A DNA stretch of 64,000 bases from Amoebophrya sp. A120 (Eukaryota; Protista; Dinoflagellata), in NCBI GenBank assembly GCA_905178155.1, contig CAJINV010000019.1, positions 688,475 through 752,474 of the forward strand. The letters run 5' to 3'. Numbering within the stretch: position 1 is the stretch's first letter; each line of letters opens with the position of its first letter. The translations under genes were made by a program, and so were the position numbers. Of the stretch, positions 6,905-64,000 are shown piece after piece. The notes beneath the pieces were generated by a model. The model searched no databases. It had not been told where the DNA came from and worked only from the letters and a program-made list of their open reading frames with translations.

Positions 6905-8230
6905 CTAGAAGAGCCATGGACAACCTCCAGCGCCTGCACTACATCCTGACCATGCCTCCAGTTGCATTCGGACGAAATCTTGGCTGTATCCGTTCTGGTC
7001 AACATCGGACGATGAAGATCCATGCCGCTGGTCTTGAGCAGCTGCCGGGGGGTTCATCCTCTGCCCGTCGCGAGGTTGGCCACGAGGGGGGGCACTACGT
7101 TGGGCGTCTGCTGCCGCAGCAGCGGCTTGTGGTCCACTCAGTGCGGGACCACAAGCCTGCGAAGAAGCGGAAGCTGGAGCTGATGATGTCCACATCCTGC
7201 GAAAAAGGTTTTTAACGCGCCCCACGCAGGTACCTGGCTCCTGTCTCGCTGATGGGTATGCTCTAGCATCAACATGCATTCGCCTGCCTTGGGTCGCACG
7301 CCTGGTCGTTGGAGGGACAGGAGAGATTCGCCGGCCGTGGCTAGCACCATCAGGCATAATGCCTGACGGGAGAGACGGAGCCGCGAATGCCATTCGCGGC
7401 TCCGCCTCGCCCGTCTCAGTAGTTTCCTGCTGTCTCGGCGAAGAGACAGGAGACGAGATTCTTCGCAGGACGGAGCTAGCACCAGCACTCCTTCGCGGGC
7501 GCGTCGTGCCCGTCTCCACCGCGCCCGTCTCCGCCTCCTCCAGCATTCCCAGGCCGCCCGTCTGCATCGTCGACGCCGCTGGCCTTGCGTGGCTGGATGG
7601 CCCTTCCCTAGAATCAACAAGCATTCGCACGCCCGTGTTCACCGCGCCCGTCTGCGTCTCTTCTCCTCGAGCATTAACATGCATGCGCACGCCCGTGTTC
7701 ACCGCGCCCGTCTCTTCTCCTCGAGCATTAACATGCATGCGCACGCCCGTGTTCACCGCGCCCGTCTCTTCTCCTCGAGCATTAACATGCATGCGCACGC
7801 CCGTGTTCACCGCGCCCGTCTCTTCTCCTCGAGCATCAACATGCATTCGCACGCCCGTGTTCACCGCGTCCGTCTCTTCTCCTCGAGCAGCAACAAGCAT
7901 GCGCACGCCCGTGTTCACCGCGCCCGTCTCTTCTCCTCGAGCAGCAACAGGCATTCGCACGCCCGTGTTCACCGCGTCCGTCTCTTCTCCTCGAGCAGCA
8001 ACAGGCATTCGCCGCACGCCCGTCGGTATCGTCGACGCCGTTGGCCCTTCGCGGCTTGAACTTGATGCCCGTGTACTAGCATTAACACGCCGGCGCATGC
8101 CCCAGCCGGATGGAGGAGGTCTTTCTGCGCCTCTCATTCGCCGGCCGTTCACAGAGTCGAGCATGTTGATAGTAGCAAAAGTGAAGGCGACAGAAAGCGC
8201 CATGATGGTACGAAGAGACGACCTCATCAT
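6905..8230 (-). CDS. Putative secreted low-complexity protein with 18-aa tandem repeats
   Basis: Uninterrupted ORF; first ATG at 8230; hydrophobic N-terminus (IMALSVAFTFATINMLDSVNG). Confidence 0.7.
   Translation of the reverse strand: MMRSSLRTIMALSVAFTFATINMLDSVNGRRMRGAERPPPSGWGMRRRVNASTRASSSSREGPTASTIPTGVRRMPVAARGEETDAVNTGVRMPVAARGEETGAVNTGVRMLVAARGEETDAVNTGVRMHVDARGEETGAVNTGVRMHVNARGEETGAVNTGVRMHVNARGEETGAVNTGVRMHVNARGEETQTGAVNTGVRMLVDSREGPSSHARPAASTMQTGGLGMLEEAETGAVETGTTRPRRSAGASSVLRRISSPVSSPRQQETTETGEAEPRMAFAAPSLPSGIMPDGASHGRRISPVPPTTRRATQGRRMHVDARAYPSARQEPGTCVGRVKNLFRRMWTSSAPASASSQACGPALSGPQAAAAAADAQRSAPPRGQPRDGQRMNPPAAAQDQRHGSSSSDVDQNGYSQDFVRMQLEAWSGCSAGAGGCPWLF
7612..8010. repeat. 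54-bp coding minisatellite, about 7 copies (ARGEETGAVNTGVRMHVN)
   Basis: Near-identical units visible in DNA and protein. Confidence 0.95.
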
Positions 8231-25770: not shown

Positions 25771-28700
25771 TTAATATTCTCTTTCATCTCTGCGAATCGG
25801 GGGCGGAATCGGGGGCGGAATCGGTGGGCGTCGGGGTCCTGCCCTGGAAAACTGCCTTGACCCGCGTCGCTCGTAGTTGTTGTCCGTCCTGCTATTTGTA
25901 TTGTGCCGTGCCGCTTCTGTTCTTGTAGCCTCGTGAGATGAAGTTGAAGAAGAACCTATTGCAGTGAAAAATGCCCCCACCCCCAAAGTTGCAAAAATTT
26001 GTGATGCGAAGTTTCCAAATGAAAATTTTTTGCCATGCATGAGAGGAGTATGAATCTTTCTGATGCAGAGTCTAGGCGTGTATCGCATCGCTTGCATGAC
26101 ATCCGCCACTCTTGCTGGGGTCTTTTGCAATACAAATTTTTGCTACTCACGATTGGAAACCTGTGATGCTGATAGATGCAAGAGGGCAAAGGTTTCATTT
26201 GGAAAGGTTTGCAATACAAATGCTCCCAAGTTCGGGGGTGGGGGCGTTTTTCATTGTAATAGAACCACCTGCTCCCGGTAGTTGTACTCCCGCACTTCTG
26301 CACAGATCTATCAAATGTAAAAATGTCTGGGTCTGGAAGATTGCTACTTACATTTGTCATGCGTGTCTGATATGGCTCAAGAATCTGTGATGCATGGGCA
26401 CAAAGCTGTCCTCGTACCTGTCATGCAAAAACGCAGTTTGCCATGCGGAACACGCAACACATAGGAGCCCAAAAATTTGTCATGCTTGGCCCCGTATTGC
26501 AGTGGAACTCCCATTCACTTTTAGCAATACAAATTTCCAGACCCAGACATTCTTACATTTGATAAGATCCGCATACAAGCAATCGATCAAACCTAGCTGG
26601 CGCGGGTATGGCGTTCTCAAACGTTACATTCTCAACTGTTTAATGCAAGACTAGCACAGCAGGTGAGAGGGAGAACCTTGCGCGTCTTGCATTACAAGTT
26701 TGATCCAGATTACAGTGCTATTTAGCCTTCCGAGAATTTGTCATGCGAAGCAGCTTGATTGTCTGGCAGGTCATGGTCATTTTGCATGACAAATCATGTA
26801 ACAGTTGAGAATGTAACGTTTGAGAACCCCATAGCGGGAACTGCGTCGCCAAAGTCGCCCGATGCGGTGCCAGCCGGTCTTGCCATTCCTCACAAGCCTT
26901 GGTCGGGAGAGAGTTATAATTTCTTGCGGCGGTAGTTACGTTTTCTGTTTCATTGTTCCACGTCCACCTGGTGAGCCCTTGATGCGGCTTTGGGTCGTAG
27001 AAATTGCAGGACCCAGAGGTCATCACGAGCCATTCGTTTTCCGTGATGCCGCGGGTTCGGAAAAAGTCTTCTGGCGAGAGCAGCGTCGTTTCATTATTCT
27101 TAACCTCCTCCTTGTTCCGCAGGTCAGAGAGAAAATCCAGAAAAATTTCTTCTCCGGGTAAAATCGTTCGTGTTGCACGCAGTGCTTCGGCTCCGATACT
27201 TTTATTGTCGCCTGTTGCAGCAAACCCCGCGGTCTCCGTGTTCGTAAGATTGGCATTCATGCGGCGTTTGGCCATGTCGAAAAAGGGAATGATGGCCCGC
27301 CTACCGGCCTCGGAAAGCATGTACAATAAGCGCGTGTCCAACAGGATTTCTGCGTGCTGCAGAGCCTCCGTCGACACCTCCGTCCCGTGGTCCAACTCGT
27401 CCAACTCGAAGTCCGCAAGCAACGCTTTGTGCATCTGCCGCTCGGCGGCGAGGTCCGCCCGGGCCTTTGCTCTTCCGCGCGCATACGCGAAAACCTGCGA
27501 AAAAGGCGTGAGGTCCCGCAAGATCGGGTCGGGAAGTTTCCACAAAAAACCCAGCTCCCCGGGTTTTGGCAGGAATTGCGCGTAGTCCAGAAAGCTGGAC
27601 GTCGCCCGCTTCGTCTTCGTCGGGGCTTCGTTTCTCATCCACAAGAAAAGACCAAAAATCCCCAAACAATTTGTCATGCAAAACATGCATAAACTGCTGT
27701 CTCTGCCACACAAGGAATTGATGGGGATGGGTTTTTTATATGTGGATACTGTTTGCGGCCTTTGCAGCGCAGGTGGAAGTACTATTGCTGTTTTTCCAGC
27801 CGTCCAGTACTTCGGAGGTGTGTCCCATGATCGCAATCGGTCTCTCGGCTGCACTTGTCCTTTGACACGCACTTTCATCCACTTCCGACAGCGTTTCTTG
27901 AATCTTCACCGGCCGAGCAGCGCCAGGAGCTGCCTCAGCATTTCTCGTGCTTGTCCGCTCCAACTCACGAGCACTTCGCTTCTCTGCTGCTAAGATGGTA
28001 CGCGCCAATCCGTGCGCGCAGTTCACTATCAAATGCAAATAAGTCATCTGGGTGGTCTGGACGGTTGCAAGACAAATTAAAACTCGTCATGCAGGAGGTT
28101 CTCCATGACCAAGGAAGTCTGGAAGTATGCCGGACCTAGCATGACAGCTTCAGATTCTGTGAGATCTCTACCATGCATCTTCTGCATGAGAAACACCCTC
28201 TGAACTGGAAGATCAAAAGTGGAAAACTTTTGGCAATCATGCAACGAAGATTTTTCCACGATCCACACTTAGCTTGGCAAGTTGGAGCTCTTCCAGACCC
28301 AGGAGTATTTGCAAAGCATATTCATGGGCACTGCTAACTCCCAGAGACGACCTAGTTCTTGAAAATAGTGGCAGCGGAATAGCTATGCATTGCAATCTGG
28401 AAAGACTGGAACTTGTGACGCTCTCGGTTAGTGACACAAAAATCTGTGATCCAAGAGAAGCAATACTTATCTTCTCCACTTTTGGCTGCCCTGAGACGAA
28501 AGAATTTCGCATGCAGCATGAACATGGGAAAGCTGTGGCAGCTGAATCTGTGATGCGGGGGGACCTACAAAAATTAAAATCCTGAAAATGAGCATGAAAA
28601 ACTTCGACATCTTCTTTATCTTTTCCAAATCCAGACATTCAAATTTGCAGCTAGATAACAACAAGGGCTGCGCGACGGTGGCAACGATTTCGCCCTTTTC

Positions 28701-31700
28701 TATTCTCACCTTGGCAAACATATAGATTGCAAAAGTGTCTAAATCTGGAAGAATGCAAGTTTGTCATGCTTGTCTGGCATAACTCATAAATCTGTGACGC
28801 AGGAGCAGGAAAAGGACCTCTTGTCTGTCATGCAGAAACGCAGTTTGCCATGTGGAAAACGAAACACAGGAGCAGCTCAAAAATTTGTCATGCTTGGCTG
28901 CGTATTAGAGTGCGCCCACCAGTCACATTTTAGCATTACAAGTTTCCAGACCCAGACACTTTTGCATTTGATAAAACAGTCCGCGGCCGGGTTGGGAAAT
29001 CATGCTGTAGTTGGTTTAGAGCTGTAACGCCCGTTAGCATGAGAAATTGAGTAGAATTTGTAGTGAATTTTGCATGACAAATTGCAGGTGGGTCCGCCGC
29101 TACATTCTCCCTCTTGCCCTTCTGGGAAGTGGGTTCTGCACACCGCAGAAGTCAAGGCTTATGCGCCGGGCAGCTTCTAGACATGGTCTGGGTGCCGTTC
29201 TTTCGCCATGTCCATTCGTCTCCCTGTGCTCGCATAAGAGCACTGCAACAGCCGCGGCAAAGACGCCAAAAAGAAAGGCTGCGAAGCACATGCAATTAGG
29301 CAAGAAGGCGCAAAAAAAAGGGCCAAAGGACCAGGCCGAGAGCTTTGACGCGTCTATCCGGCAGGCGCGTGAACTCTCCAGGCCTTTTCGGCAGAATAAA
29401 ATATAAAGGGGCTGAGGGCAACAGAAGGCGCTTGTCTTTTCCCCTCGGCCCCACTTCCCAGGGCCTATGTGCGGACATTCTTAAGCACTTTGCTGCGCTG
29501 AAGTTTGCTTATCACGGTCGAAAAGGGGAGCCCTGTGAATTTTGGGGCGAATTTTGAAAAAAGTGCCGGTGAGTTTTGGCCTACGGCACTTGTTCAAAAT
29601 TCGCGGGCGCATGAGAAACTCCGGGTTTTGGAGCTCCAAAAAAGTTTCGCAAAAAGAAGAAGCCTCAAAATTCCCCAAGAAAATTCCTGACCTGGGGGTC
29701 ACGTCAAAGAAAACTAGAGGACCCGACCAAGATGAGGCAGGAACACAGCCGGGAAGAAGGTACAGAGCTAAGCAGGCGATGCCAGCATCCATCGCAACGC
29801 GCCTCCAGATATCCAAGCCGAGACAGCAACAACCCGTGACGCGACTTCTCTATTTTGGGATATTGAGCTACTGTCCCTGCCCCCCTTTCCAGGCATGGCC
29901 CTCCCTATCGATCCGCCACCATCGAGTCTGCGGATCAACATGGAGCATCGTGTTGTAAAACCGGCGCCACAAGCCACCTGTGTTGCTTCGCAGTCCACCA
30001 GGTGCGCCTCTTTGGGCAACAAGCGGCAAGCGTCCATAGGAGGGCAGCGTCACCAGCCAAGCAGCCCATCAGCACGGCGCGCTGGCTGCTTGTTTTCCTC
30101 GTGTTCGTCGCATGCACGTGATTAGTTCATGCATTGCCACGCAATACAAATTCACTGCAAATTCACCTTGTTGTATGCTAACGCCCGTCCTTGGCAAACA
30201 GTCCGCGGTCGTGTCGGGGAATCATGCTGTAGTTGGAGCTGACAAAAACGGCGCGCAACTGCAACTGGTGCTTTCGCACTCCTGCAAAACGTGTTTCTTG
30301 GCCGGGTGTCTTGTTCGTCTCACCCCTCCGGGAGGGGCGCCCAGGAGGGGTAGCCAAAAACGCGCTTTTTTGCGCTTCCCCCGATGCTACGAGGGGCACC
30401 CAAAAAAGGCCTTTTAGGGGTAGCCGAGTGGCCGTTTGCTTCTTTTTTGCCCGGGGGTGGATCCGGACTTTTAATTTAAAGTATTTTCTGAGATAAGCAA
30501 CAGGCGAATGCATTCGGCGTGGGGCTTGCCAGGATGTCGGGAACCGGAGGCCAGAATGGGGGTCTATGAAAGACGGGGGGGGCAAGCCTCTACTAGAGGA
30601 ACTCACGGAAGAGGCCGCGGCATCGTTTGCGAACGGCCGGAGCATGTTTTTTTCGCGCTAGCCCGCCCCGTGCGTGTGCTTTGCATTTGCCAACGCAATA
30701 CTGCGAAGGCAATTGCCCCATCGCAGGCAAACCCTCTCCAGAGCGCACCGCGCCCCTGTTTTTCTGCCCTTTCCCCAGCCTCAGAGGGGCGGCGGGTGTT
30801 CTCGGTGGGTGGGGCAACGGGATGGCGGGCGCAGGGCTCGAAGGTAGCTAACCCGAACTCGATGCGCCTTCTTGTGGTAGCCGCGGCCGGCACAGCGCTC
30901 CGACCAATCTCTGTGCGCCACACTCGTCGGACGAAGCGACAGAGCGAGCCGGAAGCCATGCGGCCACCAGCAGCTGCTACTCCGGCCGGTCTGCCTTTGC
31001 CACTGCCTGAAAGTGGGGCCTTTCGGCTACTTATCTTGTTCATGCATGAGGTGGGGCGCCGGGGCCGGCAATTCCCGTCAAACGGGAGGGGCGACACGCG
31101 CGACCCCTGACATTTTTGGACATTTTTGACAATTCCGTACTTAGCATCGCCAAACAGTCCGCGGTCGGGTTGGGGAATGATGCTGTAGTTGGAGCTGCCG
31201 ACGACGTCTTGATGTTTCTTCAAGGTCAACATCATAGAAGTACTAGTACTGTTCGTCCTGTACGACCACGGGTAGTCGGCCACGAAGACTTTTGTCAGGT
31301 TTGTTTCCGGAAAATCCCGTATCAAATGTAAAAATGTCTGGGTCTGGAAGATTGCCGGGTTTGTCATGCACATTTTGCATGACTCCTCAAATCTGTGACG
31401 CATGCCCTAGCATCACAGATTTTTAGAGGGCTTCCTGATGCCTATTCCGCATGACAAATGCTCTTTCCGTGCTGCAAAATTCGGACTCTCTTTGCTGCTC
31501 ATGCAATACAGATTTTTTTAGAATCCAAAATCAGCATGACAAGTTGGATTCTTCCAGACCCAGACATTTTTACATTTGATGTCCCGCTCGTATCTCCGGG
31601 CCAGCTCCTCGAACGCGGGTAGTGGCAGTGGGAGGGGTGGTATCAAATGTAAAAATGTCTGGGTCTGGAAGAATTCATGTTTGTCATGATTGTCTGGCAT

Positions 31701-32155
31701 GACTCTTAAATCTGTCATGCACGTTACCCAAGAGCTCCGTTTTTCTGTGATGCAGAAGCGCAGTTTGTCATGCAGAATAGGCAACACCTAGGAGCTCAGA
31801 AACTTGTAATGCTGGGCCAGCATTTGTAGCCTCATCATGAGACGCCACCCAGCATCACAAGTTTCCAGACCCAGACACTTTTACTTTTGATAGGTGGAGT
31901 TCGCTCGACTTGGTGAGCAAGTTCGTCGTGTGTTGTAGTGGTTGTACTCGTCGTACTTGTCGTGCCAATGTTGTTGACACTGAGGACTTCGGGGGACGTC
32001 GCTGTGATCATCGCGGCGGTGGAAGAAAACAAGGCGGTCCTCTCGTGCCACGCGGAAACAAGCACAACACACGTCGGGGCCCTCATCGCCAGAAGGACCA
32101 TCAACGACTGCTGGATCCAGGACGACGGGGAGCCGACCGCGAGATTCATCGACAT
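25771..32155 (-). CDS. SET-domain (Rubisco-LSMT-like) methyltransferase, split by 8-9 introners and a ~2.2-kb insertion; possibly pseudogenised
   Basis: Spliced motifs SMISQPGRGLF|AKVRIEKGEIVATV and RAIIPFFDMA...ALRATRTILPGEEIFLDF; hydrophobic N-terminus. Confidence 0.65.
25957..26261. mobile_element. Introner family F (TIR TATTGCAGTGAAAAATGCCCCCACCCCC)
   Basis: Direct repeat GAACC; frame restored. Confidence 0.9.
26309..26564. mobile_element. Introner family A
   Basis: Direct repeat AGATC. Confidence 0.9.
26607..26833. mobile_element. Introner family D
   Basis: Direct repeat GCGGG. Confidence 0.9.
27636..27748. mobile_element. Highly degenerate introner-like intron
   Basis: Residual inverted repeat ATCCACA...ATCCCC / GGGGATGG...TGTGGATA; lies at the frame switch between two SET-gene exons. 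Confidence 0.4.
28027..28320. mobile_element. Introner family A
   Basis: Direct repeat TTCAC/TTCAT (4 of 5). Confidence 0.85.
28384..28657. mobile_element. Diverged introner, family A-like
   Basis: Direct repeat ATAGC/ACAAC (3 of 5); 5-bp-offset removal gives QPLL|FRCHYF. Confidence 0.7.
28721..28973. mobile_element. Introner family A
   Basis: Direct repeat AAACA; splits GRGLF|AK. Confidence 0.9.
29035..30180. mobile_element. Non-autonomous hAT-like DNA transposon, 1146 bp
   Basis: 8-bp TSD ACGCCCGT (29027-34 and 30181-88); termini TAGCAT...ATGCTA; subterminal inverted repeat GAATTTG(T/C)AGTGAATTT. Confidence 0.75.
31320..31581. mobile_element. Introner family A
   Basis: Direct repeat TCCCG; very similar to 3270-3531. 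Confidence 0.9.
31641..31892. mobile_element. Introner family A
   Basis: Direct repeat GGTGG. Confidence 0.9.
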
Positions 32156-41000: not shown

Positions 41001-44000
41001 ATCGGGATTTGTAATGCATGACCGCGATTACGATTAGTACGTGTACGACACTTTTGCAGTGCATACATCAGCTCCTGGAAGTCGAGAAAGCCGACTTGAA
41101 CGTGTATGAAAGTGCACAACTCGTCCCCCTCCCCCTCATTTGTGATGCAAAATTCCAAATCCACCCTTTGCATCTTAGCACTGTTTGCATGACAGAATCC
41201 GGAATCCAAAACCGCACTGCAATCCTCTAGAAATTTGTCATCCAAAAGCTGCATCTTTGCCAGCGCTTCTGTTGCTGTTCATGCAACACAAGTGAGCGGG
41301 AGGGAGAGTTGTGCACACGACTCATAACGTGCGTGGTGTGTTCACAAATCTCCACCGGCCTCCTCGCTTGCCCGCACCCGGGTCTCGTGTCCCACGGCCG
41401 GTGGGGCGGGAGGTCGCCGTGTCCCTCGCCGGGAAGTCGGGTGTCTCGAGTCGGCGCCACGGAGTATGGAAGCGTCAGGTTTGAAATCGTCAAAGTTGAA
41501 ATAATTACTATTTAAACAGCAGCAAACCAGAGTTTTTGAAGCTTTGGGGTGTGTTCTGGGGTATGTAAGGTGGCCGCGTAGCACCGTGATTCGTAATTTG
41601 CAGGGCACACCCCGAACACACCCCAGACACACCCCAGACACACCCCCGACACACCCCCGACATACCCCCCGACAAACACCCCCGACAGACCCCGGCCGGA
41701 ACTTTTAAGGCTTTGGGGTGTGTTCTGGGGTATGTAAAGTGGCCGCGTAGCACCGTGATTCGTAATTTGCAGGGCACACCCCGAACACACCCCAGACACA
41801 CCCCCGACACTCACACCCGACAGACACCCCCGACACTCACACCCGACAGACCCCGGCCGGGACTTTTGAGGCTTTGGCCTGCGTTCTGGGGTATGTAAAG
41901 TGGCCGCGTAGCATCGTGATTCGCAAGTTACAGGGCAAGCCCCGAACGCACCCCAGACGCACCCCCGGCAGACACCCCCGACAGACACCCACGGCAAAGA
42001 CCCCCGATACACCCCAGGCAACCACACCCAGGGCAGGGGGCAGAACAAATATCCAGAGCGGAGAGCGTTTCCGGATCGATCCGAATCGCGTGAAAGATCC
42101 AGAGCGGCAGAAGTATCCAAACCTGGCGCATTTAAATAGTCTCGCAACCGGCGTCATTGCATACGAACGCGGCCCGGCATCAGGCCTCCGGGCCCAGCTG
42201 TTGACGCTTTGGACTCGGTCCCCACGTCATGACCTAGGGGCCAGCTGTTGGCGCTTCCCAGAAACTAACCGCGCGGCCCAGGGGCAATCAAACAAAAGCC
42301 CCAGGGCTTGCAGCTAGGGGACTCGCTCCCCCCATCATGACCTAGGGGCCCGCTTTGGGCGCTTCCCGGAAACCAACCGCACGGCCCAGGGGCAAAAGCC
42401 CTAGGTCAACGCGGGGACTCGGTCCCCGCGCCATGACCTAGGGGCCAGCCCTTGGCGCTTCCCGGAAATCAACAGCACGGCCCCGGGGCAAAAGCCCTAG
42501 GGCAGCGCGGGGACTCGGTCCCCGCGCCATGACCTAGGGGCCAGCTTGTAGCGCTTCCCATACACTAGCCGCACGGCCGAGGGGCAAGGGCCCTAGGGTA
42601 GCGCGGGGACTCGGTCCCCGCGTCATGATCTAGGGGCCAGCTTTTGGCGCTCCCCGTACACTAGCCGCACGGCCCACGAGCAAAAGCCCTCGGGCAGCGC
42701 GGGAACTCGGTCCCCGCGTCATGACCTAGGGGCCAGGTGCCGGCGCTTTGTTTCCGGAATGAATGAAAGAAACTAACCGCGCGGCCCAGGGGCAAGAGCC
42801 CTGGGGCAGCGCGGGGGCTCGGTCCCCGCGCCATGACCTAAGGGCCGGCTTTAGGCGCTTCCCGGAAACCAGCCGCACGGCCCAGGGGCAAAAGCCCTAG
42901 GTCAGCGCGGGGACTCGGTCCCCGCGTCATGACCTAGGGGCCAGCTTTTGGCGCTTCCCGGAAACTGACCGCACGGCCCAGCCCTAGGTCAGCGCGGGGA
43001 CTCGGTCCCCGCGCCATGACCTAGCGGCCAGCTCTGGGCGCTTCCCGGAAACTAACCTCACGGCCCAGGGGCAAAGGCCCTAGGTCAGCGCGGGGACTCG
43101 TCGGTCCCCGCGCCATGACCTAGGGGCCAGCTACAGACCCGGCGCCGGAGTTATCGGCGCCCCGCCCCCCGGCCCGGCGCCAGCTTCTTCCTTTCTTTTC
43201 TCCCTGCCCAGTGCCGCCACAACCCCCGAGCCCCCTCGTCCCAGACAAATGCCGGAAGGTCGCCGCACGGGGACTCTGTCCCCGTGCTCGGACCTTGTTT
43301 GTAATGCATAAAATGCGATACAAAAAGTGACTCTATTGCAGAGGACCCACGGGAAGCAGATTATAGTCCTGGTAAGGGTCAAAAGTTGGACTGCTGACTA
43401 GCATGACAGAAGGCAGCTCTTTTGCCCTAAACCGCATGACAGACTCGCTTCCATGACCGGGAAAATTTGTCATGCACCGACTACAAACTGTAGGTCTAAC
43501 TGGTATCCGTTTTATGCATGACAAAGTATTTCAACTTTGACGATTTCAAACCTGACACATCCATACGGAGGGTTTCTGTGATATCGCATGATCCGAAGAT
43601 GAAGAGGGATCTTCTGCAGTTCCATCGGCAGATGTTGAGCCTTTATTTTCTGCCTTAGCTGCTACCTTCAACACATTTGGGCTGAAGTCGCGGAGGTTTT
43701 GAAACACGTATCCCAGAAATTTTCTTTTTCCACTATAACCTGCTCAGGTGTTACAATCTCAAACGCTACAATAGAGTCTGAAACTTGTCGTGTTGCAAAA
43801 TGCGCAACATCTGGCCCACTCCCACAGGAGCGAGCATGACAAGTTTCGGAGCTCCAAACTCTATGAGAATATCGCGCAATTTCTATTGCGAAAAGCCGAA
43901 GTCTCTGTATGGCACTCATGCTGTTTATGCAAGACAAGTTTCAGTCTCTATTGCAACGTTTGAGATTGTAACATCTGAGCAAGCCATATCCACTGCCAAC

Positions 44001-53231: not shown

Positions 53232-56197
53232 TCATCGCTCGTCCTCTGGAGAGTGAATGTGAAGATGCTGCGCATGTTCGTCATTTATTTCGTCAAGCTT
53301 TTGTAGTTCCGAATCCGAGCCAGCGTCTGCGTCAGACTCGTTTTCCATATCGGAAATTTCATCTTCCTCACAGCTTTCTTCCTTGACAATGGCTCCGCGG
53401 CCACCTGGTTCAGCAGGACCCGCCTCGTCGTCATCTCCACAGCCTCCTGTTGCTCCTTCCGCATAGTTGTACGCATGATTGCAAAGGTCATCATGCCCCC
53501 TGGCGTTCGCTTCCGAGCTCTCTTCATGCCCTGTCGCTTGCTTCTCGGGCTCGGCACAAAAGCTAGGGTCGTCAAGAGAATGAGAATTGTTTTCAGGGTG
53601 CTCGTGATTGTCGTCGTCCCCGTTAGATTGTGATTGACCTTGAAGATGGCTTTGTTGATCATCTGCAAATAATCCCCCTGGAGATTGAAGATCATTCGTT
53701 CCCGCCGTCGTGCGAGGTTGGTTCCCGTTCATCGTCACCAGTTTTTTATCCACTTCTCCGCTCGACAATGCAGTTCCAGTTCCCGCAGCTGGTGCCGTGA
53801 CTGTTCCCAACTTCGGATTTTCCGGATGTTCCAAAATCCGGAACATCACCTTCCGCCCGGAAAGTTTGAAATACTCGGCATACAAATTGTCCTTGACAAA
53901 CTTCCGCAGCACCCCCTTCGCCTTTTCGTACACTAATTCAGAGTTCGCAACCACGGAAATTTGGTACTGGTGGTTGGAACGAGATACAGGATGATGGTCG
54001 TGGTGTTCATCTTGGAGCTGCTGTCCTGAAGAAGATCCTCCTGCTGCTGCTGCTGTCTCCATGGAGGAAGTTTGTCCAGCTGCTGCGGCTGGACCAGCAG
54101 TCTTCTGCGCGACGTTCTTGTGCTTCTTAACTAGCTTGAAAGTCACACCCCCGCTGGCGCACGATTTTTCTAAGTCCAGGATCGTTTTCGCTGTCAGGTA
54201 TTTGCTCATCAGTTCTTGCACCTGATGCTTGATATCACACAGAAAAAAGCTGGCAGGGCAGACTTGTAATGCTAAAATAAATACACAAAAAAATTTGCAT
54301 TGCTTACCCTAATCAGCATGCTATGGGGCTGCCCATGACAGATTTTTCTGCGTGTTTATTTTTGCATTACAAATGTGCCCTGCCAGCTTTTTTGTTTTTC
54401 TGTGGGATACTGGAAATCGTGGTTGTTTCGCCCGTTTAGTCCCCGCAGGTTGTTTCGTGGATGAAGCTGCACAGAAGTCGCGGTTGAACCCGCCGAAGAA
54501 CCAAAAGTACAAGATGTTGACACGACGATCCCAGAAGCAGCTCCGGTTAATACAGGGCCAAATTCTACTTCACCTCCAGCACCTCCACGAGCGGGCGCCA
54601 CGTCGTCTATTCCAATCGGCACTATGCAGAGCCACTTCAGGGTTCTCTGCAACACAGTGACCTCCTCGTCCTTTGCGAGTAGAATCCGCTGCTGCCACTT
54701 TTTTTCCATCTGCTGCTTTTTCCGCTGCTGTTGGTAGTACCGCTTCACTTCCTTGTTATACGCCGCGTAGGCGGTAGCAGTACTGTGCGACGGATAGTAG
54801 TAGTTTTTAGTACTCGCGAATAGAGCAGCAGAGGGGAAGTAGGGAGGGGTGTGTGTTGATGCTGCGTCCTCAACATCCAAAATCAAATCCGTCCCATTCA
54901 CATGGTACTTCGCAAGGCGGTCGTTTTGAAGTTCATGCTTTGATGGAAGCTTGTGCAACTTGTCCGGTAGTTGCTCCATCTGCGAGGACAATGTAGAACT
55001 TGTCCTTTCGTTGCTGCTCGAAAAGAAATTCATCGCTTTTTTCACCTCATCATCCCCAACAACTTCTTTTCCATACTTCAACGGGAAAACGTGCTCGGTG
55101 CCTCGTTCCAGGGACCGTCCGACACACCACGCCATTTCGTCGCAAAACAAAATTTCCATGAGCTCGCCGAGGAAAAAGAGGTCGCGGTTGCGTTTTTTGA
55201 TGATCTTCACAATTGGGAAGGGAAAGGTTGAGGATTGGTCTTGCTGGTCATGGTTTCCCGCTGTCGTCGCATCATGATGTACAAGTTCCGTTGCGCTGTC
55301 GGGGGTGGTGCTAAAATTCTTCTCCTCCGATGAAGATGATCGATGAGGACCAAGAACAACTTCCGGATCAACATTCGACGTTTTTTTCCTGCCGCCACCA
55401 AGAGCAAGAAGAGCAGCGGCATCGGGGTTTTGGTACTGCAGATCCTCGGCGAAACTACTGGAAATTTCGGAGATGGTTGAAGTTCTGGGGTTGTTGTCTT
55501 CTAGTACCACATCACCAGCATCTTCTGCAGACTGCCTGCCTTGACCTTGTACTTGTGCCTCGTTTATTGTCGTAGTGGATTCGGCGTCGGCGTCGACGCA
55601 TGGTGGTTTGCGTTTGTCTTCAAATGCAGATAAATTCGAGCGGCTGGTGGTGGTGTCCACTTCTTTTGAGAAGTAGTTCTCTTTTTTATTCTGCGCGATT
55701 CCTGCAACTACAGGCAGATCATCGTCGTGTTCAATGGTCGTGTCTTGGTCGCTCCCATGGCCATGCAGCAGCTCTTGGCTTTCTGTCTCATCATCTTCCT
55801 CGACTTCGTCTAGCAGAAAGTCGTGAAGATGCACGGCATCATATCCTGAGTAAAAACGTACCCACACCAGAGTTGTAATGCAGATTTGCAAAGACAGGAA
55901 GACTTGTAATGCGCATCCCCATGAGAGCCATTTCCAATCGTGTTTTGGAATTTGTGATGCTGTGAACAGGATGAGCAGACGAATCTGTGACGCGGCTGCA
56001 CTTGCTACCCTGCACTACACTGCATAGCGAAACCTGTCATGCGTGACTCACAAAACTCCTAGGTTTGTGTATGCAAAATCCTCATCCTGACTCTGGTGTG
56101 GGTACGTTTTTACTCAGGATACATCAAAACTGTCCGTCTGGGTCTGCTGCTGGACCACATAGAAGTCGTCCAGATCGAAACCCTCGAGGAAATCCAT
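53232..56197 (-). CDS. Uncharacterised 832-aa protein with an SH3-like segment (2 introners)
   Basis: Joins TDSFD|AVHL and HDFQ|HQVQEL; spliced 2499 nt; GELMEIL...AWCVGRSLERGTEHVFPLKY resembles SH3. Confidence 0.75.
54233..54409. mobile_element. Introner family I (almost complete fold-back)
   Basis: ~60-70-bp TIR TATCACACAG..AAAAGCTGGCAGGGCA; direct repeat CTTGA/CTGGA. Confidence 0.88.
55842..56121. mobile_element. Introner family B
   Basis: Perfect TIR TATCCTGAGTAAAAACGTACCCACACCAGAGT; direct repeat CATCA. Confidence 0.92.
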
Positions 56198-57396
56198 AGT
56201 GAAGATAGGTCACGTTTTCGTTTGTTTTCGATTCCTTTTTTTTTCTCCGAAAAAATCGTTGTCGTTTTGCATCGAAGAGTGATGAGGAAGATGCCGCTCT
56301 TGCTTATGCTTCAAAAGATACGTTCGTGCTTTACACGGATCTTGTCTTCTCGAGAAACATCAAAAGCGTGCAAACAATGATCATGCGTCGCAGATGAAAA
56401 AGGCAGTCGAGCAAGGGATCCGTAGGAAACAGAACCAGAAGAAGAAAAGTGCAAGATCACATAGTAAATACTTCATGATCATTCGGAGGCTCACAAAAGA
56501 AAAGGTGCTTACAGTGTACGACGCAGGGGCGGGAACAAGAGAAACGCCTCCGGAACAAAAACGAGGGATAGGATCCTACAACAAGATCTTGTTGCTCGCC
56601 GACGTTAATCTTGATTGCGACAGCGACAAGTAGAGGTGGAAATCAAAATGAAACCATGCGTGCGCGACTCTTCGGTCGTTCCTTTTTCTAACGATGGCAA
56701 ATCAAAAAATCTGCACCGGTCTCGCGAAACTGTACAGTGTACCGTGGCCATCGTATGGTGTAATCCCGCTTTTCTCCAACCTCCGGTGACGTAGTTCTGG
56801 CCATCCATACTACGGCAATCAATTCTAAACTGTACAGAAGAAATGAAATGAAGATTTCGTGATACTTCTATCAGCGAACGGGGCTATTTGAAACTCCGCT
56901 CTCTTGCGAGCGGGCGTCACTGCCACTGGTAACATTAACTGGTCGCATTTCTTAGTAGTATTCGCTCGAGCTTTCGCATTCGCTAGTGTCAAAGAAAAAA
57001 GAACTACAAAAACTTAGCAGCGGAATAGCCACTTTCGACTCATTCATTGATGAGTGTCGTTGTTTCATCTTGCACAAACCATTGAAAGTTTTCTATCGAC
57101 GCTTTGCCTCCCAGGCGGGGGGCGAAGTCGCATCTTTTTAGAAGGTTAAGACTAAGACTGAACTTGGAATTGCCACAAGGCCGACCACTATTTTTCAATG
57201 CTAAAAACGACTTGGTGGATAAAAGGTGTACTTAAGACTGTTAAAAAATTAAGAAATTCGCATGATGTTGTACAGATTCATAAACTTTGCTTTCGTGAGG
57301 ACGTTAAAAACATTTAATGATACATGGGCATTTTCGCCGCTTCCGATGTCTTCCGCTTTTGTTCCTCTGCGCCTCTACTTCCCGCCCCCCTGCTTC

Positions 57397-60300
57397 TCAC
57401 ACCGGCAGCGCCCCGGGAAATTTGATGGGCATGGCCATCGGGTGGGCTTCCGTATCCAAGGAAAAAACTGTGTAGGTGTAAAGTAATTTTCTTGGAGGAA
57501 TAGCATCACAAGTTTGCTCTGCATGACACAGAAAACCTGTCATGCGTATCCAGTACCTGAAAACACGAAGGAAAGAGCCTCTGATGCACATCCAGCATGA
57601 CAAGTGTAGCAGTTTTGCACTTTCTGCATCACAGACTTACACTCACATAGTTCTTTTCTTGCATATTCCGTGCTGATGATGTACTTGCTCAAGTCCAGGA
57701 TTGTGATGGGGGAAAAAATCAGGTAGAAGTATTTCATCGTTTCGGCCATGAAGAAGGATTCCTGCTGGTTACTCCGGACCGACGGATTCCGCACGTCCCG
57801 CAACGCGGTGTAACCGTATTTGGTCTTCGAGTGCTTCTTGAACGCCAAAAACATTATCACACAGACAAAACAAAAAGCTGGCAGGGCATATAATTTGTAA
57901 TGCAAAAATAAACACACACAAAAATTTGTCATGGGTGGCCCCATAGCATGCTGTTTCCGATATGCAATACAGGTTTTTTTGTGTATTTATTTTTGCATTA
58001 CAAATGTGCCCTGCCAGCTTTTTTCTGTGTGATAAACATCTCGGTCGCCCACTTCCGGTATTTCGGGTCCCCGGTGTAGTAGTGCAGGTAGTACAGATAT
58101 GCAGTGCAGATATGTCTGGGGTCTGGAAAAGTAAGAGCAAGGTTTGTCATGCCAGGCTAGCAAGACTCCCAAGTCTGTCATGCACGTTACCCAAAAGCCC
58201 TATTTTTCCGCGATACAGAGACGCAGTTTGTCATGCAGAATAGGCAACACGAACACTTAGAAGCTCAGAATAAACTTGTCATGATGAGCCATCATTTGTG
58301 GCCTCCTCATGCTACGTCACTCAGCATTACAAGTTTATTCCAGACCCAGATAAGTATATTTGCATTTGATAACAGAGCCTCGATCGCTTCCGGCCGAAGC
58401 AAATTGTGCGCGCCGTCGGGCGGGAGCACCATATCGTTCGCATTATCCTTGGCATTCACGTCGAAACGGACATACTCCGGGGAGAGACCGGTGTGCGCGA
58501 GCTTGTACCTTGGTTTTGGTAGAATTATTGAGGGAGGAGTAGAGTTTGCATGATGAAAACGGATCACTCTTGGTTGTTTTTTGCATGATCGGTATAGAAG
58601 AGAGAACCACGAAGGAAATAAATGAAGTTGTACTACGGTATTACATTTTGTAACAGGTTTCCGCAACTCCTTCCGCCGCCGGAAGCCACCTTGGGTCCAC
58701 CTCTTCCTTGTCTAGTTCGAGGATCCCGAGTATCAACATGCCCGGCACGAAGCAGGCCAAGTGGTCCATCTTGTCCAACCGCTTTCCCGCATTCTCTTCC
58801 GCGATGAAAATGGTGCCCTTTTTGGTTTTCACCACGAGCCGGTCCATCATTTCATTCATGGCCTTCACGAATAATGCCTTGTACCTGATTTATATTTTTG
58901 TAAGAAATTGAAATTGCCATCCGCATCTTCACGCGCGCTGACTGTGACTATCTCCTTCTACTTTTTCCTTCTGGAAGATGACAAAAAGCTAAATTTTCGA
59001 ATACAAAACAGGCATGAAAATAAAAAAACGAAGCATCACTATCATAATACCGTGCGTCCCTCTTCCCGTTCTGTAGCCACTGCTTCACTAGATATTCGTA
59101 GTAACTGTCCCCCATTGCCCCGAGACTTATCCTCCCTCCGATGAACCCGCTGTGCGCGGACTGCTGTTTCGACCCCATGTAGATCGGCACCAAACCCTTC
59201 TTCGCGTTTTCGCTGTTCTCGACGATCTTCATGAACGCTTTATCTGGCACGGTCCAGAATTCCGTCCTCTTTGTGTGCGCGGACAGCATGCGAAACTCCA
59301 GTTGCAAGGTTCCGACTTCTGCGATGTTTGTGCCCGTCGCCCAGTTATGGATTGCAAATATGTCTGGGTCTGGAAGAATGCAGGGCCTGTCATGCTTGTC
59401 TGGCATGACCCATGATGCTTGTGATGCATGACCCAGCATCACAGATTTTTGGAAGGCTTCCTGATGCCATTTCTGCATGACAAATGCCCTCCACGCGTAG
59501 CACAAATGCGGCTCCTCTACTTGCTGGTCATGCAATACAGATTTTTTTAGAGTCCACAGTTAGCATCACAAGTTCCAACTTTCCAGACCAAGACATTTTT
59601 ACAGTTGATACCAGTTCAGCCACCTGCTACCGCCGGATGCGAGGTCTATCTGGGGTTTTGGTAGCCCGGACTCCTGGGTGAAAGCGCGGAGCAATCTGGA
59701 ACCCAAATCCGCTGCTTTGTCGAGAAAAATCTGGTGCTGGGACAGCGAGAAGGCCGAGAGCAGCCCACCGAGACCACGGATCGTGATTTCGAAGACGGAA
59801 TGGTAGCCAGATCTGTGATAACGATAAGGAAATTTGGCATGCGAAAATGGATAAGTACGCAAACACAAGTTGTGTTCATCGTTGTGATAGCTGCATCAAC
59901 ATCACATCACATCACCGCAATAATCACCTCCCACATCAGCACTTTTTACCTTATCGCCCCAAAGTCTAGTTTCTGGACGAAGTCCTCCCCCTCTGCAAAT
60001 TCTTTTTTCAGGTCCATCACCCACAGCGTGTCCAGCGAGTCTAGTATGGTGATCCCGATGGAGACCCAGTTGTGGCCTCCCCCGGTGACCGGGCGCACCT
60101 CGTCCTTGCCCCACGCGGTTGCCTTGTACCCCCGCCAGCAGTGCACCATCTCTTTCCGGACGGTTTCGGCCATGACGTCGGCGTCTCGTTGCGACTGGAC
60201 CAATTCGTCCTCGGAGAACTTTTCTTTCCATCGGGCGGGAAAACTTGCCTTCAACACGTCATCCGGGAGTGTCGCCCGCGGCTCCACGTCGGTAATGTCG

Positions 60301-62230
60301 GCTATGTATCAAATGCAAATATGTCTGGGTCCTCTGGAAGAATGCAGGAGTTTGTCATGCAGATTTTGCATGACCCATGATGTCTGTGATGCATGCCGTA
60401 GCATCACAGACTCTGCGAGGACTTTCTGATGCCCATACTGCATCAGAAATGCCCTCTCCGCGTAGCAACAAACTCGACTTCTTTTGCTGTTCATGCAATA
60501 CAGATTTTCTGTAGAATCGAAAGGTAGCATCACAAGTTGCATCCTTCCAGACATCCAGGGATATTTGCAATGCATACTATGAACGGCGGAGGGGTCCTGT
60601 TCCACCACCACGACTTTTATCGAAGAAAAAAAGTTCGTCACGATCACTCATGCGCATTCTTGCAATACAAAATTGTTTGTCATGCGTAAAAATGCATCAC
60701 AGACAAACTTCATTAGGGAGTTCCCTAGTGTTTCTGCAATACAAGGAAAGTTTGTGATGCTGAGAAAATTTGTAATGCAAATCCTGCAAGTTAGTGAGTG
60801 TGACAAACTTTTTTCTCTCCATAATTTTGTGGGGTCTTTCAGTTTCAACCTGGGTCTTCCTATTCTTTGCATCAGCATCACTCTCATCATCTTACCATCT
60901 TTCATCACGATATGGATGTGTCAGAGTTGAAATCGACAAAGTTGAAATAATTTGCCATGCATAAAATGGACGCCAGCTGGAACCCAGTTTCCAAGTGGCG
61001 CATGACAAATTTCGGCGGTCCCTAAATCCAGTCTGCCATGCTGTTTAGGCAAAGAAGAGCGATTTTCTCATGCTACTTTAGCAGCTCGATCTGTAACCCC
61101 AAACAGGCTGACAATCGGCCTCACTTGCCTGCTCTGCAACACACGTGCCTCGGGTCATGCATTTTATGCATTACAAATTATTTCAACTTTGACGATTTCA
61201 AACCTGACGCTTCCATACACGACGCGCGTCCGCTGCGCGGGTCCCCGCTTCGGCGGGAAGTACCGCCTTGTGGATTGCAAAAATGTCTGTGTAAACTTGT
61301 CATGCAGGTTTTCCATGACCCATGAGGTCTGGAATGCTGGACTTAGCATGACAGACTCTGTGAGGTCTTTGTCATGCCTATCCTGCATGAGAATCTCCAT
61401 TCCAACTTGGTCGAAAGTGGACAGCTTTTGCCGCTCATGCAACACAGATTCTTGCATGATTCGGATTTAGCATGACAAGTTGCAATCTTCCAGACCCAGA
61501 CATGTTTGCAATCCATACGCCTTCTCCGGAGCGGAATGCGGGCCTGCCGTCGGCGGAACGGAAACCGCGCCGGTCTCTGTTTGAGCCCGCTCAATACGGA
61601 CCAGCGGTGGGGAAACACCGACGGCGGGCGCGGGTTGATGTTCTGGTTGTTATGCAAGGAAGCGTCTTGTTGTGACAGGCTCGGAGTACTTGGTGGATTT
61701 CTTGCCGGCGGTTTCGGAAGAGGCGGTAAAACAGGTTGCGGCTGCTGCGGCTGCTGCTGCTGCGGCGGCGGCTGTTGTTGTGCAACTGCACCAGCATTGG
61801 GAAGGCTTTCTGCCGGCGGGGCGGCGAAAAAAGGCGGGAAAACCGGGTGAAAAAGCTGCGTCCGAGTCTGGTGTAGCAACTCGGGGTAACTGCTCTGGGC
61901 GCCGGACGCAGATTCTTGCACCGCTAGAGGTGCTGCCAGGACTAGTCGGCCACCGGGGGGCGGTGGGCTGGGGAGCAGGGGGAGATGGCCTGCATCGGCA
62001 GTCGCCCCCGCGACAGCTTTGTCGGCTGCCGTTGAAGTTGTACCAGTTGCACCAGCTTCCGCTTCGGCATTGGAAGCAATTTCCGATGCGAGTGCTACCT
62101 GGAAATAAAATAACGATCGCGAGTAGAGCAACAAAAAGCTGCTGCTCGCGCCGAAAAGTACTTGCGCTGGTGCCCCCTGTCGTGCTGCGGTACTCCTAAA
62201 ACCTCCTCGGCCGGCGCCTGCATTGCGCAT
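57397..62230 (-). CDS. Class I alpha-1,2-mannosidase (glycoside hydrolase family 47), 796 aa; 8 introners plus GT-AG introns 58509-58644, 58885-59050 and 59813-59949
   Basis: GH47 motifs AWGKDEVRP, LDSLDTL, SVFEITIRGLGGLLSA, AEVGTLQLEF, GAMGDSYYEYL, MDHLACF, LRPEAIEAL, ESFFMAETMKYFYL, STEAHP; spliced 2391 nt; start codon inferred. Confidence 0.93.
57453..57665. mobile_element. Introner family J
   Basis: Direct repeat TTCCG; splits the conserved TE|AHP motif. Confidence 0.9.
57855..58034. mobile_element. Introner family I
   Basis: Direct repeat AACAT; long TIR. Confidence 0.92.
58098..58371. mobile_element. Introner family A
   Basis: Direct repeat ACAGA; IEAL|YYLH. Confidence 0.92.
59346..59610. 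mobile_element. Introner family A
   Basis: Direct repeat CCAGT. Confidence 0.92.
60307..60576. mobile_element. Introner family A
   Basis: Direct repeat CTATG. Confidence 0.9.
60618..60823. mobile_element. Introner family K (TIR TAT.GA.GAAAAAAGTT.GTCAC)
   Basis: Direct repeat ACTTT/ATTTT; DPTK|SWWW in frame. Confidence 0.8.
60911..61217. mobile_element. Introner family E
   Basis: Direct repeat CACGA. Confidence 0.92.
61269..61517. mobile_element. Introner family A
   Basis: Direct repeat CGCCT; left end is TGT instead of TAT. Confidence 0.88.
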
Positions 62231-63105
62231 CGCAGCAGGTGCTGCAGCGCAGGCTGGAGGGGCTGGAAATTTTGACGAGCTTCTGTTTAAGTAATGTTCA
62301 TCTGTATTCTCATGATGGTAGTGCTGCCTCTTTCTTGGAAAGATCTTCAAATTTACTGTATTCTCATGGTCGTGCTGTGAAATAAGTCGAAGCACCTCCG
62401 TGCTTCCTAAGATTTTTTTTTTTCAAATGAAGCGCGATATTTGATTTTCTTTCATTCTCGGTAGCTGCAGTAAAAGAAGTGCTGCAGTGCTCGTCTTCGT
62501 CTTTCCTTTTTGTCATTAAGGAGCGTCACAGGCGACGAGCTAGTACTACGAGCGCGGCAAATTCGCTAGCTGGATGCTGTGTTCAAGTCCAGCCCAGGGT
62601 AAGTAGGTCTACTATTGAGCATTCACCTCGGCACTTAAGTCTCTCGCTCTTGCACTAAGTGCATTTCACTCTCAGAATGAATAGAAAGCTACCGCTAGGG
62701 TGATGCGCAGACGTCTCTCGACAACCAGTATGAGCTTCGTCCATCGTTTATACTCTGAATGCATGGGCTCTACTCGATGGTAGTCATGTACTTGAGCTAT
62801 ACGCATGCATGGCACAGAACTTCTGCTTAACCTTATTTATCGACTTCAGCATGCATATCAATCAAGCTGGAGAAACAGCTTTCCCGGAATAATTGACCAT
62901 GACTGTGTTGTGGAATAGTGAATCAGGCAGCCGCTTGCATATCCGTCGCTTCTGGAGGAGGCGTTTTCGCAACCCAGGACACGTCTGGCCGTTCTATGTA
63001 CCTAAGGTTTGATGATTTCTGAAAAGTGAGAAAATTTTTTATGAAATCCGACTCCTTCTGGGACGAGTTCGCGTGAGACTACGCGTGGGTTTGAAGCCCC
63101 AACCA

Positions 63106-64000
63106 TCAGATAATGAAAATGGAAAAACTATGAAAAAAGCAGTACGGGGTCGATTTGAAGAGCGGCACCGGTTCTTTGCTGTCCAACGTTTTGTAGATTC
63201 CGATTTCCCTCGTTACCCTATTGACCACCGGCCCGGTAGACTGTCCAAACTGCACGTGCACTTTCATGCTACTCCGGTCTAGTAGGTGTTTGTTGTCGAT
63301 CAAATCGTCGAGTCTCGTTATCGTCGCGTCGAAGAACGCTTTTGCGTCGGGCCACGTGTAACTGTAGTACCGCGCGTCGAGCATGTATCCCATGAAGCCG
63401 TGCATGCCCTGCTGCTCCGGTTTGAAGCCGCCCAGGTAGAGCCGTATCCCACGAAAAAAGTGTTTCACTGTAAGGATTTTGCCAGTTTTGCATCACAAGT
63501 TCACTCTACATGACAGAGAAAATTTGCCATGCGAGGTTCCTAAGCGAAAACACAGCTAAAATCGATTGTCTTTCATGTGTAGCAAGACAAACACTTCGAA
63601 GATACTGATACATGTTTTGCATTACAAGTTTACAGTGAAACAGTTTTTTCCTGCGGTAGGCCGATCCGTCTCCCTATTGGCCACCATCCGCGGGAACAAA
63701 CCCCCGACGTAGACGGAACCCTTGCTGTAGATATCCCGGTTGGCTTCGGATGTGTCCGCGACAATCTTGTTCCCGATGTACCCATATGCAGTGAAAAAAT
63801 ATCGCACGTGCTAATCGCAATCACGCAAGACAAATCTCTTTCCCAAGCTCAATCAGCTTGAAAAACTCCATTTGTCACGCAGAGCTAAATTTGTATTGCA
63901 AGAAAAAGAATTAAGTAGATTGAGTACTAGCACGGGGACGATACTTTTGCCATTCATAACACAACAGCGCGATCGGGGTAAAAGGAGAAGCCGACCAAGG
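63106..64000 (-). CDS. 3' part of a gene with a LamG/concanavalin-like beta-sandwich domain; starts beyond the window
   Basis: Spliced LVGFSFYPDRAVV|YIGNK...DR|.YLGGF...FMGYMLDARYY; 3' end uncertain. Confidence 0.6.
63445..63658. mobile_element. Introner family J
   Basis: Direct repeat AGCCG/GGCCG; internal similarity to 57453-57665. Confidence 0.82.
63785..63958. mobile_element. Introner family C
   Basis: Direct repeat ACCCA/ACACA. Confidence 0.82.

Follow-up and report, generated by a model that had tools for sequence, protein, structure and literature searches.

Introners of the dinoflagellate Amoebophrya sp. A120 are the closest described counterparts of the elements treated here: they are repeated introns of about 240 nt with non-canonical ends, carry inverted repeats that start with TAT as well as direct repeats of 3-5 nt (5 bp in the legend of Fig. 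S19), are supported by RNA sequencing, and share 'heterogeneous genes' with GT-AG introns (Farhat et al., 2021; PMC7789003). The introns analyzed in that study were 40-1000 bp long, and the border position was marked 'unknown' (Farhat et al., 2021; PMC7789003). Introner families of A120 were traced to terminal-inverted-repeat transposons, namely miniature inverted-repeat transposable elements (MITEs), and can number tens in a single gene (Gozashti et al., 2025; PMC12130899), and AT5 and Kv use canonical introns (PMC12005148). The nonconventional introns of euglenids have paired ends and junction repeats, reach several kb and are removed by an unknown mechanism (PMC11282704), and in twintrons, including the stwintrons of fungi, an inner intron lies in the terminal signal region of an outer one (PMC6616335; PMC8469720). 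Here we analyze 64,000 nt of A120 contig CAJINV010000019.1 (positions 688,475 to 752,474; hereafter the window). We consider it quite probable that its minus strand carries a conserved gene for a protein with a LamG-like domain and a GH47 alpha-1,2-mannosidase domain, whose eight inverted-repeat elements are absent, each together with 5 nt, from contigs of runs that are probably RNA, and that the locus likely gives rise to two mRNA forms.

The eight elements in the main part of the gene belong to the published introner system, of the A120 type, and a gene that combines many introners with GT-AG introns is ordinary, already described biology for this organism; what is new is that elements are nested in an outer intron, together with a second 5' end of the gene and a handle on the cut register. 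The terminal inverted repeat of 8-20 nt and the 3-5-nt direct repeat of Amoebophrya introners are both present in elements 1-8, and compared with the introners of Farhat et al. (2021) the locus adds a 2,644-nt intron with four elements inside and a second in-frame 5' form. With the MITE-derived introners the elements have in common that they are putatively non-autonomous, end in terminal inverted repeats and are numerous per gene; a difference is that the outer intron is single-copy. End pairing and junction repeats also resemble those of the euglenid nonconventional introns, but CAG/CTG at positions +4-6/-8-6 is absent from the elements, their ends are TAT...ATA, and the lineage is unrelated. 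The geometry of a twintron fits element 4 together with the outer intron, with a putative ordered removal, although fungal stwintrons are GT-AG spliceosomal introns, whereas the inner and outer introns here are both non-canonical. A search of open publications brought up no work on Amoebophrya introns of this kind that are nested or several kb long, and the supplement text of Farhat et al. (2021; PMC7789003) does not contain the word 'nested'.

Elements were sought by a de novo scan of positions 57397-62230 (minus strand), made without the coordinates of the initial annotation of this stretch, and their removal was followed in assembled contigs of four runs (X1-X4) that come from one sample of one study and whose RNA status is a software guess. 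The scan recovered exactly eight elements of 180-307 nt, each beside a 5-nt direct repeat that is perfect in seven and has one mismatch in element 3. All start with TAT and finish with ATA, apart from one that finishes with ACA, and in 8/8 the first 20 bases are complementary to the opposite end at 13-18 of 20 positions. The parts of the gene in this region are:

60297-59950, 59812-59611, 59340-59051, 58884-58645, minus strand: shared exons of the GH47 catalytic domain (PF01532, orthologs and contigs)
58508-58372, 58092-58035, 57849-57666, 57447-57397, minus strand: shared exons of the GH47 catalytic domain, continued (PF01532, orthologs and contigs)
61269..61517, minus strand: element 1, 249 nt, group A, inside the outer intron; joint skips 254 nt in 4/4 runs
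60911..61217, minus strand: element 2, 307 nt, inside the outer intron; joint skips 312 nt
60618..60823, minus strand: element 3, 206 nt, inside the outer intron; joint 60612/60824 skips 211 nt
60307..60576, minus strand: element 4, 270 nt, group A, at the 3' end of the outer intron; joint skips 275 nt
59346..59610, minus strand: element 5, 265 nt, group A; joint skips 270 nt
58098..58371, minus strand: element 6, 274 nt, group A, in the opposite orientation to elements 1, 4 and 5; joint skips 279 nt
57855..58034, minus strand: element 7, 180 nt; joint skips 185 nt
57453..57665, minus strand: element 8, 213 nt; consecutive contig pieces 57447/57666 in X1 and X3
59813..59949, minus strand: GT-AG intron, 137 nt (frame test and contig joint)
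58885..59050, minus strand: GT-AG intron, 166 nt (frame test and contig joint)
58509..58644, minus strand: GT-AG intron, 136 nt (frame test and contig joint)

The contigs of X1-X4 contain 0.48 of the query words, which equals the exon share. Joints across 185, 279, 270, 275, 211, 312 and 254 nt (elements 1-7) occur in 4/4 runs, as do those over the 136-, 166- and 137-nt GT-AG introns, and at element 8 218 nt are skipped in X1 and X3 (2/2 such runs examined), so that each element junction has the length of the element plus 5. None of the eight has GT-AG ends in any of six registers, and the same contig drops the three GT-AG introns along with the elements. Element 6, which lies in inverted orientation, is likewise removed, and removal is indifferent both to orientation and to terminal dinucleotides. 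All shared GH47 exons (57397..60297) are joined in one contig in X1 and X3. When the eight elements, each with 5 nt, and the three GT-AG introns are taken out of 57397-62230, 2391 nt remain, which from the ATG at 62230 form 796 codons with one terminal stop. Uniform removal offsets of 0-4, 6, 7, 9 and 10 run into a stop by codon 283, offsets 8 and 11 keep the frame open but lose residues, and the retention of any one of elements 1-7 leads to a premature stop.

The protein encoded by the shared exons is assigned by sequence to the GH47 class I alpha-1,2-mannosidases, with full membership of PF01532: the exons span positions 2-449 of the 455 of the profile (in a scan without the 58-nt exon and the last exon). 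The GH47 part is 76-79% identical to two orthologs over 514-519 aa, with junctions free of gaps, and the acidic and calcium-binding motifs align ungapped with the orthologs and, through the AT5 ortholog, with 1fo2. Particular residues among them we take to be catalytic. The AT5 ortholog, to which the window protein is 79% identical in the GH47 domain, matches human ER mannosidase I (PDB 1fo2/1x9d) along the entire domain (E 1e-97); what distinguishes the protein, a mannosidase by its predicted sequence, from other class I members is a LamG-like domain, of weak score, ahead of GH47.

The initial annotation had proposed eight introners of five families plus three GT-AG introns, nucleotide-precise removal and the processing of two intron classes in one transcript. 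The independent scan reproduced the count of elements, comparison of the elements upheld the five groups, all 11 junctions are joined at the predicted lengths, which makes removal precise in length, and one contig has lost both classes. The alignment to PF01532 that it had recommended gave matches for 6/6 core exons tested, five above the cut-off and one just below. Its argument from rebuilt conserved motifs applies to elements 5-8 and not to elements 1-4; since only the former sit in conserved sequence, just four elements back it. Conservation of the gene, which it had also claimed, applies to the GH47 part and not to residues 1-293, which are without a match.

Elements 1, 4, 5 and 6 are mutually 62-78% alike, and elements 2, 3, 7 and 8 are each at most 61% alike to any other, which gives five groups. 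The eight elements are nevertheless probably members of one superfamily, because the motif TGT[ACG]ATGC is common to all of them, in 2-5 copies apiece. In a fifth run (X5, kind unknown), the best-covered listed site of each of the eight elements has 18-93 variant contigs, so elements 1-8 are repeated in the genome. This run contains unspliced contigs that enter elements (e.g., 58305-59371 and 59582-60333) and do not break at 60299, and because of these it behaves as DNA; it derives from another sample and study than X1-X4. Copies at 78-94% lie in the window for elements 1, 2, 4, 5 and 7; those of element 2 (13366-13672, 94%) and element 7 (54233-54409, 87%) are close enough to suggest recent spread. 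The A120 end motif (TAT, seven bases, at least three A) is fitted by 6/8 sense 5' ends; element 8 fits it at the opposite end, and element 2 begins with TAT followed by no A run. Folding is better than that of shuffles in 8/8 elements (z -2.9 to -14.2; hairpin of element 3, -7.3), with values of -2.6, 0.5 and 1.2 for the GT-AG introns. No Rfam matches were found within 57000-64000. Raw RNA reads of run X9, which carries the same species label, match 61434-61507 of element 1 at 90-95% and cover no exon of the gene; we assign this match to a related element in another strain or locus.

The best homologs of the gene are proteins of Amoebophrya AT5.2 (1035 aa) and A25 (952 aa), both with a hydrophobic segment at the N-terminus, which is clear in AT5 and weak in A25, a weak LamG-like domain (E 3e-4, below the cut-off) and GH47. 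Their alignment extends the gene upstream by these features:

63998-63959, 63779-63659, 63439-63146, 63001-62942, minus strand: upstream exons of the LamG-GH47 form (ortholog alignment)
63785..63958, minus strand: element A, 174 nt, repeat copies mismatched at position 3; putatively removed, by the ortholog alignment
63445..63658, minus strand: element B, 214 nt, starts with TAC, repeat copies mismatched at position 5; putatively removed, by the same alignment
63002..63145, minus strand: putative GT-AG intron, 144 nt, placed by ortholog alignment
60298..62941, minus strand: outer non-canonical intron, 2,644 nt, TATG...CATA (62941-60303, 2,639 nt) plus 5

The exons at 63998-62942 match the orthologs at 53-61% (E 1e-62 to 1e-72), and when they are joined to 60297 the protein is colinear with both orthologs across the joint, at 75% and 71% over about 675 aa. 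Because the orthologs align across this joint, the first four exons of the initial annotation and elements 1-4 lie inside an intron of the ortholog gene, which to judge from the alignment begins beyond the window (past 64000). The 796-aa model put forward by the initial annotation is therefore not the orthologous gene, as its residues 1-293 have no ortholog match (E of at least 0.1), and it was incomplete, as it overlooked the outer intron of 2,644 nt and the exons upstream of it. A metagenome scan for ortholog DNA found none. In a distant protein from ENA, P0006 (604 aa), a LamG domain (PF13385; E 1e-5) stands ahead of the GH47 start, so that the LamG-GH47 order is not confined to Amoebophrya; the literature search returned no publication on P0006 or its domain order.

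The outer intron is also seen in the contigs. The long shared contig stops at 60299 in 4/4 runs, and in X1, X2 and X3 another contig extends from 60299 by at least 255 letters, of which the 30 printed are unique in the window and lie at 62944; the join is 62942/60297 (+/-2 nt), with 2,644 nt skipped. Among the upstream exons (62942..63998), only 62944-62973 is present in contigs. The chance of finding TAT and ATA plus 5 at the registers of the joint is about 2e-4. The two repeat copies are alike at 3/5 positions and the upstream copy is kept. Elements 1-4 and the first four exons of the initial annotation fill the outer intron, and the insertion of element 4 falls within the final 4 nt of the outer element and 1 nt of the outer repeat. 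Among 22 ATA ends downstream of the outer start, the best match to the right arm lies immediately before element 4, and the joint-best match to the outer repeat directly after it; the ends are TATG/CATA, and a longer arm is formed only with element 4 removed. Element 4 would thus have to leave first and return the right arm of the outer intron to the cut site, as in a twintron, a reading we hold tentatively and at somewhat less than even confidence. Depth in X5 over 61675-62600 (90% likeness) is 46-55, against 42-47 on exons, which is single-copy. As introners are repeated in the genome and this segment is not, either by depth or by search of the window, the outer intron is not an introner in the strict sense: it behaves like one but is not classed as one. 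It probably goes back to an old insertion of this type, now degenerate and present once, into which elements 1-4 came afterwards. A short introner at 62941-62729 was rejected (no fold signal, z -0.8; no likeness to window elements). Iterative collapse across the window gave no convincing second nested case, at thresholds that would also miss the outer intron.

The sequence that the long form skips contributes a second 5' form:

62230-61518, 61263-61218, 60905-60824, 60612-60577, minus strand: nested coding exons of the short form, with 60301-60300 amounting to 293 codons

In 4/4 runs a nested contig runs from 62392-62450 down to 61518, lacks elements 1-4 and passes over the 3' end of the outer intron to enter the shared path. 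The nested contigs halt at 62392-62450, and X1 and X3 leave the stretch up to 62600 uncovered, which is not taken as evidence of a start. The 293 codons form an open frame that continues into GH47, with 0 stops as compared with 14 and 3 in the other frames, and the chance of such an open frame is 0.00025-0.005 under four nulls. The 796-aa protein is likely a second isoform with a different N-terminus, encoded by a short form that likely starts inside the outer intron. An earlier ranking of the LamG form as 'major' (depths 120 vs 18) was withdrawn, as contig depth cannot rank forms; back-calculated depths are about 11/43/27/17 for the joining contig and 18/34/13/35 for the nested one. Another reading frame, with a TAA read through, was discarded as the true nested frame (negative score in 13/14 windows), and so was a paralogy of the two pre-junction tails, which is not significant when set against other Pro-rich windows.

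Several observations weigh against the explanation favored here. All removal evidence comes from contigs of that one sample and study with its guessed RNA label, and contigs cannot reveal transcript starts, strand, levels or phasing. The outer joint itself rests on 30 letters, in 3/4 runs among the matches listed. The 3/5 repeat match is tied with one other site, the arm score of 15 is followed by runners-up at 14, 14 and 13, and an arm duplex of -15.0 vs -8.4 kcal/mol is equaled by 7-14% of 144 control ends. The outer segment has no second copy within the window and no TGT[ACG]ATGC motif. In the nested frame the codon model gives -14.6 to +10.2 per window, as compared with 7 to 27 for held-out conserved exons, and the hydrophobic segment is weak (19-aa mean 1.15 vs 2.4 in AT5). 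Searches that included the orthologs found no homolog of nested residues 1-293, nor did the first 237 residues have one among proteins of 416-2000 aa or a usable match in the Atlas search; a further search gave one 13-stretch match, probably of low complexity. The ends of element 6 fold poorly (5/20 first bases paired) and the element is removed all the same, and one GT-AG intron has 11/20 terminal bases paired.

One alternative takes the outer segment as an inserted piece of a gene, or an old partial 5' duplication, spliced out at ends that merely resemble TAT...ATA plus 5. It would account for the single copy in X5, the missing internal motif and the lack of likeness to 29 window elements, and the sequence TPPP is equidistant from the joint in both forms (shuffle p 0.014). 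That likeness is surpassed elsewhere in the Pro-rich frame (38 vs 34), however, the segment has no blastp match to the ortholog N-termini, and its ends obey the rule at the low chance level of about 2e-4; we regard this origin as a minority possibility that deserves to be kept in mind. Instead of an isoform, the short form might be a processing intermediate or an intron-retaining long transcript, from which the inner elements are gone and in which the outer intron is still present. It does consist of exactly outer-intron sequence and crosses the outer 3' end (contig 60270-60301), it has no homolog and a weak codon signal, and spliced-leader letters are absent from the contig ends. Yet a retained outer intron would end translation a few codons past 62942, so that nothing would keep the nested frame open, and 293 codons in frame with GH47 are hard to attribute to chance at 0.00025-0.005, which makes this explanation unlikely.

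It is very improbable that the 62942/60297 join comes from DNA of the sampled culture, where an allele with a deletion or another copy of the gene might lack the insert: the join is known from one sample, and the DNA-like X5 is from a different sample and study, but in X5 a contig passes unbroken through 60299 and exon depth equals insert depth, and no letter differences are listed in X1-X4 at 99%. Short direct repeats with strong hairpins, such as are present at these joins, are a known setting of template-switch artefacts, but the notion that the non-canonical joins are reverse-transcriptase template switches is barely credible, since the copy expected to survive such a switch is the downstream one, being the first to be copied, and it is the upstream one that survives, only 1-2 nt of sequence are shared at element 3 and the outer joint, and retention of element 5, 6 or 7 would truncate a domain conserved at 76-79%.

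Removal of the elements, and of the outer intron, as introns of a non-canonical kind also permits the cut to be located, because identical repeat copies hide its position and differing copies reveal it. In element 3, whose copies disagree at position 4, the contigs retain the upstream base, with 1 nt of shared sequence at the joint, which places the 5' cut either directly at TAT or 1 nt ahead of it. The outer joint likewise retains the upstream base at position 3 and, as far as the printed letters show, at position 1, and the outer intron permits registers of -2 to 0. Compared with the introners of Farhat et al. (2021), mismatched repeats here thus limit the 5' cut to two positions, 0-1 nt before TAT. 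In element B the leucine of the orthologs is obtained only with the downstream base at position 5, which at the protein level points to a cut at -1; that the -1 register depends on this single protein-level case counts against it. All nine predominant A120 motifs in Table S4 of Farhat et al. (2021; PMC7789003) have T in second place, in agreement with the prediction of N followed by TAT, although aligner placement may bias that table. A register of -1 yields a GT donor in 4/8 elements and acceptors without a common feature; a strict GT donor was rejected, as G precedes TAT in only 4/8. In the elements at 54233-54409 and 28027-28320 the repeat copies differ at one position, which provides further cut markers.

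In the mechanism we propose, the elements would have been inserted as non-autonomous DNA transposons with a 5-bp target duplication, and their paired ends would form a stem in the pre-mRNA. The cut would be measured from this stem and most likely lies 1 nt ahead of TAT and 4 nt past ATA, and excision would take one repeat's worth and restore the former coding sequence. A spliceosome without U1 is slightly preferred as the catalyst, as a mechanistic guess, because Farhat et al. (2021; PMC7789003) report 83/89 spliceosomal proteins and no U1 snRNA. In its most far-reaching version, which we consider doubtful, a 2.6-kb degenerate transposon-derived intron would be excised by the end-measured rule over kilobases after shedding an inner introner so that its right arm is rebuilt, as a non-canonical twintron. 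Through domestication it would now serve the conserved mannosidase as a second promoter and N-terminus, with a new leader in place of the lectin-like domain, and the cut would always lie 1 nt ahead of TAT and 4 nt past ATA, irrespective of sequence and orientation.

The 5-nt repeat is a window-wide rule. As a chance control, 60 non-overlapping inverted-repeat candidates were chosen across the window without a direct-repeat criterion, and 25 of them have a perfect 5-nt repeat, as compared with 0-2 at lengths 3, 4 and 6-9 and 6 at length 2. Shuffled windows gave 67-74 candidates, one of them with a repeat of at least 4/5, so that about half of the 60 are noise. The 29 window elements with a 5-nt repeat of at least 4/5 contain 90 of the 139 copies of the TGT[ACG]ATGC motif, and the other 49 copies are clustered (e.g., 2168-2528, 10640-10716, 31362-31852 and 43300-43516) and mark additional or degenerate elements. 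Two candidates of about 570 nt (2004-2570 and 31320-31892), with 18/20 terminal complementarity and no matching direct repeat, may each consist of elements that adjoin or are nested. A perfect tandem duplication of 1,295 nt (21047-22341 and 22343-23637) around the single N of the window (22342) is probably a scaffolding artefact, by which two elements are duplicated. Positions 7610-8023, in a GC-rich stretch, hold a tandem repeat array with a period near 57-60 nt.

How tens of thousands of non-GT-AG introns are removed in Amoebophrya without a detectable U1 is an open question. The published work, in the parts cited here, leaves the cut position undefined, and differing repeat copies are natural cut markers that can be scored genome-wide in RNA-seq data that already exist. 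To judge from the outer intron, very short arms may suffice for the rule to operate across kilobases. Long introns beyond the 1-kb limit of earlier analysis may have been missed and could leave gene models divided, and insertions resembling introners may be a source of new N-termini for proteins.

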